Both the position numbers and the translations under genes were made by a program. A stretch of DNA of 64,000 bases, from sequence record MT129652.1; one strand, 5' to 3'. Every line of letters begins with the position of its first letter. Position 1 is the first letter of the stretch. Below the pieces are notes generated by a model, which saw nothing but the letters and a program-made list of their open reading frames with translations, did no database searches and was not told the origin of the DNA. Shown here piece after piece: positions 1,274 through 20,419 of the stretch. The stretch comes from Escherichia phage MN01.

Positions 1274-1504
1274 ATGTGGTATTATGCCCCAATGGCTGAT
1301 GAGCCTGTAAAAATTAGCCGTGCTAAGTTTACAAAGATTTACGGTCTCGTTTATAAAAAGTCTGATTACGGTGTGCGTTTTGAAGATGCACACTGTATCA
1401 ACGACCCTTATAATGAAGACCTCTATGGCAAATTGGTTCCTATCGTTAAGGGGTCCGCCTCTGAGATGATAGATGAATCTAATATATCTGCTGCTGAAAT
1501 TTAA
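1274..1504 (+). CDS. Hypothetical protein
   Basis: Second in-frame ATG of ORF 1250..1504 has GAGGAAA SD; promoter-leader cassette (GTGTACA ... ATCATTATC) directly upstream. Confidence 0.45.
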   Translation: MWYYAPMADEPVKISRAKFTKIYGLVYKKSDYGVRFEDAHCINDPYNEDLYGKLVPIVKGSASEMIDESNISAAEI

Positions 1505-1523
1505 GTTATCTGAGGAAAATATT

Positions 1524-2483
1524 ATGATGTTAGTTATTGGTTCTCGTGCATTACATAACGCTGGCCTGATTGAAAGTCAGAAAATTGAAAACTCTGATTG
1601 GGACTTCATCGCTGACCAAGGTTCCTGGAACCACTTTAAAGCACGTATGTTCGGTGCTCATGTTCCTGTGGATAACCCTGATGTCCAAGCTTTTAAATGT
1701 ATGTACAATGGCAAAGAAACTTATTTTGAAGCTTATATTGTCCGTGCCCTGACCAACGTACGAGAAATTACTGGTGAGCTTCAAGACGAAGATTTCACCT
1801 CAAGTTATCGTCTCTTGAAATACGCTGAAAATCATATTAAGAAAGACCGTCTTACAGGTTTCTATTGGGCAACTCCTGATATTTGTCTGGCAATTAAACT
1901 GTCTCATCGTTACCTGAAGAACAATCCATTCTTCCTGAAGACCATGAGCCATATTAATTACCTTCGTAATAAGGGTGTTGTTCTTAATGATGAACTGCAG
2001 AAAATCATGCTGCAACGGCAGGCAGAAACACTGTCATACAGCCACCCTAAACTAGACGTGGGCAAGAAAACTTTCTTTAATGATACAATCTATACCCTTG
2101 ACCATGACTCCATCCACGAGGCCGTGGCGCTTGCTGATAAGCCTGCATATAAGTTCTATATGAAGGATGATTCAGAAGTCATGACCTCGCGTGAAAAATT
2201 TGAAGCACTCCCTGATGTTATTAAACTGGCAGGTGTTTATGAAGAAGCATGTGTACTTGCTCTGGAGCGTTCGCAGGTTCCCAATGAGTTTAATATCTCT
2301 CCATCCGTGAGCTTCCATATTGCTCTGGAAAAAGTCTGCACCTCCATTACTTCTGGATGGTTCCGTGAGTATGCCTGGGAACATTACCAGGAAGTGGTTA
2401 ATATGTACAACACCCTGGGTCGCGAAGACTATGTTAAACGTTTCAAGGCTAACCAACATTTAATTCGTCCTTTCACAAAATAA
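1524..2483 (+). CDS. Hypothetical protein (319 aa)
   Basis: Internal ATG at 1524 preceded by GAGGAAAAT SD; long open frame typical of phage coding density. Confidence 0.6.
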   Translation: MMLVIGSRALHNAGLIESQKIENSDWDFIADQGSWNHFKARMFGAHVPVDNPDVQAFKCMYNGKETYFEAYIVRALTNVREITGELQDEDFTSSYRLLKYAENHIKKDRLTGFYWATPDICLAIKLSHRYLKNNPFFLKTMSHINYLRNKGVVLNDELQKIMLQRQAETLSYSHPKLDVGKKTFFNDTIYTLDHDSIHEAVALADKPAYKFYMKDDSEVMTSREKFEALPDVIKLAGVYEEACVLALERSQVPNEFNISPSVSFHIALEKVCTSITSGWFREYAWEHYQEVVNMYNTLGREDYVKRFKANQHLIRPFTK

Positions 2484-11798: not shown

Positions 11799-11803
11799 TT
11801 CAA

Positions 11804-11832
11804 AAGGTCTGCCTTCGGGTGGACCTTTTTTC
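11804..11832 (+). terminator. Rho-independent terminator
   Basis: AGGTCTGCCTTCGGGTGGACCT hairpin (UUCG loop) followed by TTTTTT. Confidence 0.6.
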
Positions 11833-11899
11833 ATTTAGGGGGTTTACATCCTCATAAAAAGGGTGTACTATTATCCCATCAACTACTGAGGAGAACACA

Positions 11900-12343: not shown

Positions 12344-12526
12344 ATGTTAACTACTGAACAGATTGAACAAATCCTTAAACTTGCTACTGCTATTGAACGC
12401 GATTCTTATGATAGTGCAGTAGAACATTGTGAAGGCTATTCATATTCCGGAATAGAGCAGTGTAAACGAGATTTAGCGAATTCTAAAGCAGCATTGGTTG
12501 AGTATCTGAATGAGTTGAAAGAATAA
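12344..12526 (+). CDS. Hypothetical protein
   Basis: 60 aa ORF; compact spacing. Confidence 0.45.
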   Translation: MLTTEQIEQILKLATAIERDSYDSAVEHCEGYSYSGIEQCKRDLANSKAALVEYLNELKE

Positions 12527-12783
12527 TGGCTGTTGGATTTGCAAAAGATGGTGCTGAACAGTTAGAGATGGAAGCGGTTGTACAAGCCGCTATCATCCAT
12601 GCGAGAGCACAGGTTACAGTTGAAAGGGAGTCTGCTGAATTCTGCTTTGACTGCGACGAAAAAATTCCTGAAGCGCGGAGACAAGCGATTAAAGGTGTGA
12701 TATATTGTGTTGGTTGTCAATCAATGCATGATGAAATTTTTAAACGTGAGCCACGTAACTGCTGGCATAGGAGCATGAGATGA
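12526..12783 (+). CDS. TraR/DksA-family C4 zinc-finger protein
   Basis: CFDCDEKIPEARRQAIKGVIYCVGCQ: CxxC-x17-CxxC spacing and IPE-ARR motif typical of TraR/DksA. Confidence 0.6.
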   Translation: MAVGFAKDGAEQLEMEAVVQAAIIHARAQVTVERESAEFCFDCDEKIPEARRQAIKGVIYCVGCQSMHDEIFKREPRNCWHRSMR

Positions 12784-12874
12784 TTTACTATCTTGAACCT
12801 TGGGCTTGGCTTACAATGCTTATTGGTCCAGTTTTAATAGGTTTATTCTTTTCATGGTTAGCGAGGAAACTGTA

Positions 12875-13072
12875 ATGTTATACGACCCAAGTGGTAATTC
12901 TGAAGACGGTATTATTGTCCTTTTGGCAGATGTTGAAGAGTCTGACGATGACATTTTTGTTAAAGATTGGGAAGAAAAAGGCGGAATAACAATCCAGCAA
13001 GAAAATGATATGATTTGTCTGAATGCGAGCCAAGTCGAAGAACTGTACAGTATTTTAAAACACAACCGTTGA
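12875..13072 (+). CDS. Hypothetical acidic protein
   Basis: Internal ATG at 12875 after GAGGAAA SD; 65 aa. Confidence 0.4.
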   Translation: MLYDPSGNSEDGIIVLLADVEESDDDIFVKDWEEKGGITIQQENDMICLNASQVEELYSILKHNR

Positions 13073-13082
13073 GGAACAGAAA

Positions 13083-13643
13083 ATGATTATTGAAACAACT
13101 GAATTGTTTGGCGAACTGACCGCTGAAGTAGTTAATAATGCAATTGAGCTTTGTCAAGAAGACGATAAAATCGTACTGACTATCCAAGATATTAAACCAC
13201 TTTATGATTTAAAGGTTTTGGATAAAGATGAATATCTTAGCGGTAGTTTTAGTGGTGTATTTGATATTAACGATGATGTATGTGCTCGCATTTATAAGAA
13301 CGATGGCGGGTTTAATATTGAAACAGATGAAAAATGCCTGAGCATTAGTAATTCTGATAAATTCTTTAAATGTATTTTCAAACTGTTCCAGGAAGAATGC
13401 AAGCCAGAAGTCGAATGGAAAGTCCCTGGACAAGATGCACTGATTCGCTCTAGTGAAACCTTTGACGGTGACGAAGAGGAATTGAATTATAATACCGAAC
13501 TGACTGTTGTTCAACATGACGGTCGTGACCAACTATGTATTACCCAAGTACACGATGGTTTTAATGAAGTGGTATTTACTAAAGACGAGCTAAAAGTTTT
13601 AGTCTCTTATCTGAACTCTGTTATCCCAACTATGAACTCTTAA
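13083..13643 (+). CDS. Hypothetical acidic protein
   Basis: 186 aa ORF. Confidence 0.55.
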   Translation: MIIETTELFGELTAEVVNNAIELCQEDDKIVLTIQDIKPLYDLKVLDKDEYLSGSFSGVFDINDDVCARIYKNDGGFNIETDEKCLSISNSDKFFKCIFKLFQEECKPEVEWKVPGQDALIRSSETFDGDEEELNYNTELTVVQHDGRDQLCITQVHDGFNEVVFTKDELKVLVSYLNSVIPTMNS

Positions 13644-18919: not shown

Positions 18920-19912
18920 ATGACGCGTAACGAATATATCCAGGCCTTTAATACCACTATTGATGCAAAAGTAAAACCATTAATAGGTGAATCGGCTATC
19001 CTTTTAATTATCAATTACTGGTTAAATCAGATTGACTCGACGATTGTTGCATCCGGTCGCTTCAAGAAAGACATTGCGACTATTGCGAGTCGTGCCGGTA
19101 AAGATGATATCAAGAAAACTTTTAAAGGTTCCCGAGTCCTGGCATACCTAGTTAATAAAGACCTTCTTAATAAGTTTGGTGTTGAATCCAGACGTGGTAA
19201 AGGTACAATTGGATATCATTGGTTTGGTGATGTTGAAAAATACTACCTTGATAATCAAGGCTATACTGTTTCTGAATTCGCAAATTGCTGGGCTCGTGAA
19301 TTCAGAGATAACAAAATGTCTATCATCAAATCAGCGACAAAATTGATGGGTGGCGATTATCGCACTATCTCCCATTTGGCTGAGCACATGATAAAGGTTA
19401 AAGAGTCTGGTGCAAACCAGGTAATTATTACAGCTAAGTATGGATTCTTTACGCCAGTGGCTACCCCAGAAAATGTCAAAAAGTATTTTGATGCTGCAAG
19501 TACGCTTACTTCACAGATGCAGTGTGCCCTTAATTATATGCGTACTGTTGAAAAAATTAAAGTAGACCCTATCACCAGTACTCATGGTTGGAAAGGTTGG
19601 AAAATTGTGGTGACATTACGCGAAGTTAAATGTGCAAAGCAACCAACTGTTGCAGAAATCCATAAAAAGAAAAATGAGGAAATTATGAACGCTCCGCATG
19701 AAGTTACCACCCTTGAAGACCTGATTGATAATCTGAATAATGAGCCAGTGAAACAAAAAGCGCCTGAAATTGTTGCCCTGGAAACAGCGTATAATGAAGC
19801 TCTTGCTGTTAATAAAAAAGCAACTGAAGACTATACAAAAGCCAAGCGACTTTGGGAAGAATCAACCAATCGTCTGGATAAACTGGAACAGGCCCTGGAG
19901 CTGCTGAAATGA
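18920..19912 (+). CDS. Hypothetical protein with C-terminal coiled coil
   Basis: 330 aa; C-terminus ...ESTNRLDKLEQALELLK. Confidence 0.55.
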   Translation: MTRNEYIQAFNTTIDAKVKPLIGESAILLIINYWLNQIDSTIVASGRFKKDIATIASRAGKDDIKKTFKGSRVLAYLVNKDLLNKFGVESRRGKGTIGYHWFGDVEKYYLDNQGYTVSEFANCWAREFRDNKMSIIKSATKLMGGDYRTISHLAEHMIKVKESGANQVIITAKYGFFTPVATPENVKKYFDAASTLTSQMQCALNYMRTVEKIKVDPITSTHGWKGWKIVVTLREVKCAKQPTVAEIHKKKNEEIMNAPHEVTTLEDLIDNLNNEPVKQKAPEIVALETAYNEALAVNKKATEDYTKAKRLWEESTNRLDKLEQALELLK

Positions 19913-20247
19913 AACAACGTTTAGCTGAAGATATTGCAGAAACTGCATTTCCAGAATGGACCCCCGCTGTGGGGGTTAATAAAGGTCTTTTAAAATTTAT
20001 TGAAAACGCCGAAGGCGAAGACCTTGTACAGTTAGGAAAGATTCATGGCTGTGATGATTATAGTCAGGTTCCCGATTGGGATATGGTAATGGCTATGGTT
20101 CGCCGCCGTGAACGCGCTTCTAAGAGCGTTCCAAACTGTCCAGAATGCGGAACTGAACAGGTCCAGTTGGTCCATTGGCAGACTAGCAATCTTCGTTATA
20201 AATGCAGACATTGTAAACACAAATTTGAGCGAGAAGAAAATGATTAA
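19909..20247 (+). CDS. Hypothetical zinc-ribbon protein
   Basis: 112 aa; CPECG-x17-CRHCKHKF zinc-ribbon pattern. Confidence 0.5.
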   Translation: MKQRLAEDIAETAFPEWTPAVGVNKGLLKFIENAEGEDLVQLGKIHGCDDYSQVPDWDMVMAMVRRRERASKSVPNCPECGTEQVQLVHWQTSNLRYKCRHCKHKFEREEND

Positions 20248-20419
20248 TTTAGACGAATTAAAAAAGCTTAAAGAAAAATGTGCTTTGGATATAAATGACT
20301 TCGCAAAACAAATTTGTGAAGTCCAGCCCATGCCGGATAATTTAGTGTCAGACATCCTGGAAGCACTTGATGGTAAATCACTTGTAATCAGTCCGCGAGA
20401 AGAAAATGGCAAAGCGTAA
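20240..20419 (+). CDS. Hypothetical small protein
   Basis: Internal ATG at 20240; 59 aa. Confidence 0.35.

Follow-up and report, generated by a model that had tools for sequence, protein, structure and literature searches.

A YbiI-branch DksA/TraR-family zinc-finger gene in the T4-like Escherichia phage MN01 and its possible action on host RNA polymerase

The zinc-finger gene and its product

Here, we describe a small zinc-finger gene on the plus strand of Escherichia phage MN01, located within a stretch of 64,000 nucleotides of sequence record MT129652.1 that was analyzed as a whole and is referred to below as the window. The window derives from a Gaprivervirus, the SP18, VR7, VR20, and TH44 group of T4-like phages infecting E. 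coli and Shigella. The open reading frame (ORF) comprises 85 codons from an ATG start and yields a product of 85 amino acids, MAVGFAKDGAEQLEMEAVVQAAIIHARAQVTVERESAEFCFDCDEKIPEARRQAIKGVIYCVGCQSMHDEIFKREPRNCWHRSMR. It is tightly fitted between its neighbors: the upstream mobD.3-like ORF ends in a TAA whose last base is also the first of the zinc-finger gene's ATG (TAATG), and the next ORF begins with an ATG that overlaps the TGA of this gene (ATGA), a packing typical of T4-type early gene clusters. An earlier note, made from the letters alone, had described this ORF exactly as we find it and had called it phage-encoded, in keeping with the 85-95% identity of the region to the Gaprivervirus genomes TH44, SP18, VR7, and VR20. 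Rfam and repeat scans of the region returned no family and no notable repeat beneath the ORF. The gene is under purifying selection, as shown by ratios of nonsynonymous to synonymous substitution (dN/dS) of 0.07 against SP18, 0.05 against EAWsc9, and 0.14 against Marfa.

Two features of the product had been singled out in the earlier note, a CxxC-x17-CxxC finger and an IPE-ARR motif, and both are present as stated. The cysteines are arranged as C40-F-D-C43 and C61-V-G-C64 with exactly 17 residues separating C43 from C61 (CFDC-x17-CVGC), and the second motif corresponds to I47-P48-E49-A50-R51-R52 (IPEARR). All four cysteines are invariant across 58 homologs. The profile search that the same note had proposed placed the Pfam family PF01258 (zf-dskA_traR) on residues 38-66 at 36.2 bits (E 5.9e-9), above its gathering score of 24.9, and PHROG 54, "DksA-like zinc-finger protein," matched with an E-value of 4.6e-20. 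Sequence matches to solved structures were led by YbiI (2KGO; E 1.6e-9 over residues 1-69), with TraR (5W1S/6N57) at about 1e-4. Judged by these sequence matches, which are well beyond chance, the protein is a member of the DksA/TraR family, the assignment originally made for it.

Within this family, sequence comparison places the protein in a YbiI-like branch and outside TraR proper. Of the NCBIfam models, the best is of the YbiI type (NF008243/PRK11019), scoring 75.3 bits over residues 1-71, and the DksA_like model gave an E-value of 0.11. A profile search of 1.84 billion cluster representatives retrieved 2,788 relatives at E <= 1e-3, and the best 150 of these 2,788 are overwhelmingly YbiI-type. 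We derived the N-terminal and tail features of YbiI-type proteins from our own alignments, in which the N-terminus MAxG[FW]AxDGA is common to the phage clade and the bacterial YbiI-type proteins of 88 amino acids; the MAVGFAKDGA of the MN01 protein fits the branch N-terminus MAxG[WF]..D.A, which lies about 31 residues ahead of the zinc ribbon and is also seen in the top cluster representatives. At the opposite end, the tail PRNCWHRSMR is invariant in the phage clade and has no counterpart in TraR. It aligns at N78, R82, and R85 to the canonical tail of the YbiI branch, YNRRGSKDSQLR, and an intermediate version (HNRKVWHRSMR) occurs in one homolog (P0136); from these alignments, the phage tail appears to be a diverged form of the canonical one.

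TraR-like function involves three elements, namely an N-terminal helix with a DxxDxA tip, a C4 globular domain, and a C-terminal helix (PMC9239242, PMC6970531), and the roles of individual TraR residues are taken here from the 2019 and 2022 papers of the Gourse and Darst laboratories (PMC6970531, PMC9239242). The N-helix of TraR (residues 2-27) runs down RNA polymerase's secondary channel, S2 lies 4.3 Å from the catalytic Mg2+, and the C-helix (residues 58-73) contacts the beta lobe/Si1 (PMC6970531). On the globular domain, R48 contacts the beta' rim helices, and E46, R49, and K50 contact beta'Si3, while D3 and D6 of the tip are required in both TraR and lambda Orf73 (PMC9239242, PMC6970531). 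The tip of the MN01 protein, which lies within a block of 12 residues invariant in the phage clade (Table 1), reads F5-A-K-D8-G-A10 (FxxDxA) and stands in register with TraR D3-x-x-D6-x-A8. Over the first 16 residues, MAFFT and HMMER place the protein against TraR with a difference of 2-3 residues, and we used the spacing to the first cysteine instead: 32 residues separate D8 from it in the phage protein and 31 separate D6 from C37 in TraR. On these spacings, D8 and A10 appear to be the counterparts of TraR D6 and A8, respectively. The same arrangement pervades the branch, since [WFY]xx[DE]xA is present in 125 of 166 members with the acidic residue at a modal distance of 31 residues before the first cysteine. 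The first motif position, equivalent to TraR D3, is W or F in 124 of these 125 and Asp in none, and the branch carries about two more residues N-terminal of the tip motif than TraR does.

The features around the finger also follow TraR. The earlier note had allowed that finger spacing and motifs might fail to align with TraR/DksA; the motifs do align with TraR, IPEARR falling on I44-R49. No change is seen among the 58 homologs at I47, P48, R51, R52, G57, or Q65, and conservation of E49 reaches 90% or more, so that the equivalents of TraR E46, R48, R49, G54, and Q62 are all retained; Gln takes the place of K50. An AlphaFold2 model with a mean predicted local distance difference test (pLDDT) score of 73 contains helices at residues 8-29, 49-54, and 62-71, and superimposes on RNA polymerase-bound TraR (6N57_M) with a root mean square deviation (rmsd) of 1.8 Å over 69 columns and a target-normalised template modeling (TM) score of 0.83. 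The model also matches TraR 5W1S_M, and its match to DksA is much weaker (Foldseek E 0.14). The fold predicted in this way is TraR-like.

Table 1. Features of the zinc-finger gene of phage MN01, its product, and the region upstream (positions refer to the window)
Feature	Position	Strand	Basis
Intrinsic-terminator-like hairpin ending the rI / rI.-1 unit	11802..11829	+	Conserved in SP18, T4, and Marfa
Candidate T4-early-type promoter, GTTTAC-N17-TACTAT	11842..11871	+	Conserved in SP18, T4, and Marfa
Coding sequence, YbiI-branch DksA/TraR-family zinc-finger protein, 85 amino acids	12526..12783	+	ORF, family matches, dN/dS
N-terminal tip, residues 1-12 (MAVGFAKDGAEQ)	12526..12561	+	Alignments; spacing of D to first Cys
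Long N-terminal helix predicted at residues 8-29, matching the TraR N-helix	12547..12612	+	AlphaFold2; overlay on 6N57_M
C4 zinc ribbon, C40-x2-C43-x17-C61-x2-C64	12643..12717	+	Sequence, Pfam; all four Cys invariant in three alignments
I47-P48-E49-A50-R51-R52, counterpart of TraR I44-P45-E46-A47-R48-R49	12664..12681	+	Alignments
C-terminal helix predicted at residues 62-71, a shorter equivalent of the TraR C-helix	12709..12738	+	AlphaFold2; overlay on TraR
C-terminal tail, residues 76-85, PRNCWHRSMR	12751..12780	+	Alignments; low AlphaFold2 model confidence

Distribution among phages and genomic neighborhood

The zinc-finger protein was found by tblastn in 762 phage records, and near-identical proteins in GenBank bear names such as "DksA C4-type domain-containing protein." The clade to which the MN01 protein belongs is defined by identical first 12 and last 9 residues. 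Copies within Gaprivervirus are 93-98% identical to the window protein, and those of T4-like phages of Edwardsiella, Klebsiella, and Enterobacter, of Moon and Marfa, and of Yersinia phages are 66-80% identical (76% for the Moon protein, P0008). Jumbo phages of ~350 kb (Turkey5, slurp01, and Munch among them) carry copies with 63-66% identity and the same first 12 and last 9 residues, and because of this combination we suggest, on sequence evidence, that the gene has been exchanged between unrelated virulent enterobacterial phages. The Turkey5 copy (genome of 351 kb) lies at 1501..1758 of locus L014. More distant copies with 36-46% identity occur in Karamvirus, Slopekvirus, Jiaodavirus, and T4-like phages of Aeromonas and Acinetobacter, and their position varies: they stand beside rI, primase/dUTPase, or 57B in PG7, Matisse, 44RR2.8t, KpV477, and Acinetobacter DLP1. 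The canonical tail is kept in four of these five, the exception being 44RR2.8t. The protein 44RRORF130c was already listed with a zf-dskA_traR Pfam domain in a 2006 comparison of T4-like phages (PMC1524935). The varied positions of the YbiI-type gene point to repeated relocation or acquisition, and the gene evidently moves among plastic regions of T4-like genomes.

T4 itself lacks the gene, in line with the earlier note; the syntenic slot, a whole-genome profile search, and the literature (PMC4319498) agree on this. Between mobD.3 and mobD.1, T4 has just mobD.2a and mobD.2, neither of them related to the zinc-finger gene, and when all six translated frames of the complete T4 genome (168,903 bp) were searched, the family profile, which scores the window ORF at 145 bits, reached a best E-value of 2.8 (6 bits). 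The sole CxxC-x15-20-CxxC in T4 falls within an unrelated protein. We considered mobD.2a and mobD.2 as remnants of the gene and rejected them, as neither the reading of the slot nor the six-frame search revealed a trace of it. As a separate observation, T4 mobD.2a (38 amino acids; L003 494..666, minus strand) looks like a frameshifted form of a 59-amino-acid ORF that is intact in the Mosigvirus ST0 (L004 1272..1451): the two share LIEEYANAVSD near their start, and the C-terminal part (…DAHT.LQ…) lies in a different T4 frame.

Mosigviruses show what the loss of the gene leaves behind. ST0 has kept only the last ~30 codons of the zinc-finger gene, which are joined to ~25 codons copied from the start of the downstream DUF7189 gene. 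The chimeric ORF (54-64 amino acids) lies at L004 1459..1626 in ST0 and recurs in P0048, P0049, P0056, P0059, and P0063, and also in metagenomic relatives. This remnant of gene loss forms PHROG 25948, which was the top PHROG match of the window protein and which we rejected as a second family, since it joins the beginning of the gene downstream to the end of the zinc-finger gene. The 3' end may have been kept because the next small ORF starts in the ATGA overlap.

In the window, the plus-strand gene order begins with tk, a small membrane ORF, rI (antiholin), rI.-1 (DUF5856), mobD.5, phrog_10363, and mobD.3 (DUF7438), continues with the zinc-finger gene, a 31-amino-acid hydrophobic ORF (phrog_12165), DUF7189, and mobD.1, and ends with a membrane protein and nrdC.11 (nucleotidyltransferase). 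Between rI.-1 and mobD.5, a strong hairpin with its T-run is immediately followed by the two hexamers of a candidate early promoter, all of which are kept in the phages named in Table 1. This promoter is located ~650 nt upstream of the zinc-finger gene, ahead of tightly packed small ORFs on the same strand, and on sequence features the gene is probably transcribed from it; a search for MotA boxes found no middle-promoter box between 8,110 and 15,797. We infer that the gene belongs to an early, sigma-70-dependent polycistronic unit.

Three further genes deserve mention. The hydrophobic ORF (12780..12875, plus strand; MIYYLEPWAWLTMLIGPVLIGLFFSWLARKL), which overlaps the stop of the zinc-finger gene, matches phrog_12165 with an E-value of 1e-23, is unannotated in the SP18 RefSeq record, and is conserved downstream of the remnant in ST0. 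Three genes downstream of the zinc-finger gene, and apparently in one transcription unit with it, lies the mobD.1 homolog (13083..13643, plus strand), for which Pfam gives matches to T4_y05I_N and T4_y05I_C ("putative transcription factor"). Finally, another C4 zinc ribbon (…NCPECGTEQVQLVHWQTSNLRYKCRHCKH…) is encoded at ~19,880-20,250 on the plus strand; it is homologous to a T4 ORF of the nrdC.2 region and unrelated to the DksA/TraR family.

Possible binding to the RNA polymerase secondary channel

We propose, by analogy with TraR and lambda Orf73 and with confidence slightly better than even, that the zinc-finger protein is an early phage protein that binds the secondary channel of the host RNA polymerase and acts without guanosine tetraphosphate (ppGpp). 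In this proposal, the virulent phage would make the protein early in infection, and the zinc-ribbon globular domain would dock at the channel entrance, where R51 would touch the beta' rim helices and E49 and R52 would touch beta'Si3. The predicted N-terminal helix would then reach down the channel and bring the F5-x-x-D8-x-A10 tip next to the catalytic centre, and the bound protein would shift transcription initiation with no need for ppGpp. Polymerase binding, the direction and size of the promoter effect, and the timing of expression are what we infer; the case for binding draws on the TraR-like fold, the conserved contact residues, the kept length of the helix, and the D-x-A register. The most conserved positions other than the cysteines match the experimentally important polymerase contacts of TraR (E46, R48, and R49). 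Precedent adds to this: RNA polymerase binding, inhibition of rrnB P1, and complementation of a dksA-null strain are seen with all five phage TraR homologs tested, Gp34 of X. bovienii, which also lacks the first Asp, among them (PMC9239242), and overexpressed YbiI is reported, in a remark marked "data not shown," to rescue dksA auxotrophy (PMC2613031). By homology, the reprogramming of host transcription that the earlier note had suggested, for example at rRNA promoters, is thus a reasonable expectation. Its effect may differ from that of TraR in size or kind, because the tip is noncanonical, the N-terminus has about two extra residues, and an additional conserved tail is present.

Several considerations weigh against this proposal. 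T4-type phages shut off host transcription by other routes, and for this reason the selective value of inhibiting rRNA promoters would not be obvious in such phages. Three NCBIfam models all score under their curated cut-offs: the YbiI-type score stays below the equivalog cut-off of 96 bits, the model for the phage/conjugal plasmid C4 zinc finger of the TraR family (TIGR02419) gave 52.2 bits with a cut-off of 59.7, and the TraR equivalog (NF010268) gave 29.4 bits with a cut-off of 108. Identity to TraR is only 25-26%, below that of every tested homolog (32-49%). The full DxxDxA tip is absent, Phe standing at the D3 equivalent, and D3N in lambda Orf73 is strongly impairing (PMC9239242); likewise, an N-terminal extension has been suggested to lower the activity of VHML Orf8 (PMC9239242). 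The predicted C-helix is shorter than that of TraR and is followed by an unrelated conserved tail, and confidence in the AlphaFold2 model is only moderate and is low at both ends. Because some C4 proteins of the DksA/TraR family do not act like DksA (PMC9239242), a C4 finger with IPEARR is insufficient to establish an RNA polymerase function. In the literature on DksA/TraR proteins of T4-like phages and on YbiI, we found only annotation-level mentions and the single "data not shown" statement.

The features of the tip lend themselves to a second explanation, to which we assign a low probability: the protein would bind in the channel mainly as a plug or competitor, excluding host DksA/ppGpp signaling together with GreA/GreB or blocking the catalytic centre directly, with no allosteric tuning of promoter kinetics as in TraR. 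Such a role would account for the retention of binding-surface residues alongside a changed effector tip, with its first Asp absent throughout the 125 motif-bearing branch members, and for the invariance of the first 12 residues in the phage clade. DksA cannot function without its tip aspartates but does not need them to bind, and most activity is lost in lambda Orf73 D3N (PMC9239242). Given that S2 of TraR already approaches the catalytic Mg2+ so closely, further residues at the N-terminus would extend to the active site or crowd it. Two proteins speak against mere blockage, however. Gp34 of X. bovienii inhibits rrnB P1 and complements a dksA-null strain despite lacking the first Asp, and YbiI, with a tip of the same kind, is reported to relieve dksA auxotrophy on overexpression, a sign of DksA-like activity.

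Equally unlikely in our view is a YbiI-type function unrelated to RNA polymerase, the resemblance to TraR being only structural. Here, the zinc ribbon and basic tail would bind nucleic acid, a factor linked to ribosomes or to stress, or a neighboring phage protein. The membership of YbiI in the sigma-S regulon, the invariant branch-specific tail with no TraR counterpart, and the C4 family members that are not DksA-like (PMC9239242) are compatible with such a function. Partners are plausible too, since recent work on VP882 shows that the TraR homolog of this phage acts in complex with a partner protein, QisA, and is switched off by another protein; the tightly coupled small neighbors of the zinc-finger gene are worth keeping in mind in this respect. 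Yet the best-conserved non-cysteine positions are the RNA polymerase contacts of TraR, the N-helix length and tip register match TraR, and the nonfunctional members cited lack the tip motif and C-helix, whereas D-x-A and a predicted C-helix are retained in the phage protein. Two bacterial YbiI-type genes, which stand alone and share no neighbors, offer no alternative functional lead through their genomic context. As for a decaying or spurious ORF without function, T4 does dispense with the gene and Mosigviruses retain no more than its 3' end, joined to the start of another gene, but this reading is vanishingly improbable and, as far as sequence comparison goes, excluded by the selection data, the invariance of all zinc ligands, and the full-length proteins (84-86 amino acids; 60-98% identity) of Gaprivervirus, Moon, Marfa, Yersinia, Edwardsiella, and 350-kb jumbo phages.

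Secondary-channel binding, the reading we prefer, also admits a bolder form that we put forward only tentatively and regard as improbable, in which the YbiI-like branch would be a distinct class of secondary-channel effectors, placing an aromatic-Gly tip (MAxG[FW]xxDxA) at the catalytic centre and using the basic tail as an extra contact. If so, its activity would be unlike that of TraR or DksA, for example a general block of initiation or the exclusion of DksA/Gre, and it would have been adopted by virulent T4-like and jumbo enterobacterial phages, while the TraR type is the one found in temperate phages.

The family assignment, the presence of the gene in T4-like phages, and its absence from T4 are already known from two genome papers and from annotation. 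Our additions are the protein's assignment to the YbiI branch, the [WF]xxDxA tip that recurs systematically in the TraR register, and the invariant clade-specific tail. T4 is known to take over RNA polymerase in several layers, through ADP-ribosylation, AsiA/MotA, Alc, and the late sigma factor. Binding to the secondary channel, if it occurs, would be a further layer in T4-like phages and would provide a first functional handle on the widespread YbiI branch. The gene has perhaps gone unstudied as T4, the model system, is without it. As it stands, the finding is a routine family assignment and not surprising, though the protein is a reasonable experimental target because family members from virulent phages are untried and T4 cannot serve as the model. 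It would also offer a natural test of the importance of the first Asp in the DxxDxA tip.

Comparison with known family members

The nearest relative is YbiI of E. coli (88 amino acids; nuclear magnetic resonance structure 2KGO), which is both the best match among solved structures and the subject of the best NCBIfam model. YbiI and the phage protein share the N-terminus MAxG[FW]AxD.A, a zinc ribbon with IP[EQ]ARR, and, as it appears, a homologous tail (N..R....R). They differ in that identity is only ~35%, that the phage tail reads RNCWHRSMR in place of the canonical YbiI form, and that the ybiI gene is chromosomal and sigma-S-regulated, whereas its phage counterpart would be an early gene of a virulent phage.

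TraR of the F plasmid (73 amino acids; 6N57 and 5W1S) has the architecture of N-helix, C4 globular domain, and C-helix that is predicted for the phage protein. In the phage protein, D3 is replaced by Phe and K50 by Gln, about two residues are added at the N-terminus, and the shorter C-helix is followed by a conserved tail of 10 residues. DksA (151 amino acids) shares the zinc-finger Pfam domain and is likewise a secondary-channel binder with an acidic D-x-x-D-x-A tip, but it inserts a coiled coil where the phage protein is predicted to have a single helix, and it needs ppGpp.

The nearest parallels in phage biology are lambda Orf73, P2 Orf82, VHML Orf8, VP882 Orf61 (TraR_VP882), and X. bovienii Gp34, small phage-encoded C4 proteins of the same Pfam family that bind RNA polymerase at the DksA site and inhibit rrnB P1 without ppGpp. 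These tested homologs come from temperate phages or prophages, where they are encoded in lysis-lysogeny or early regulatory regions. The MN01 protein, unlike them, belongs to the YbiI branch and is encoded by a strictly virulent T4-like phage.

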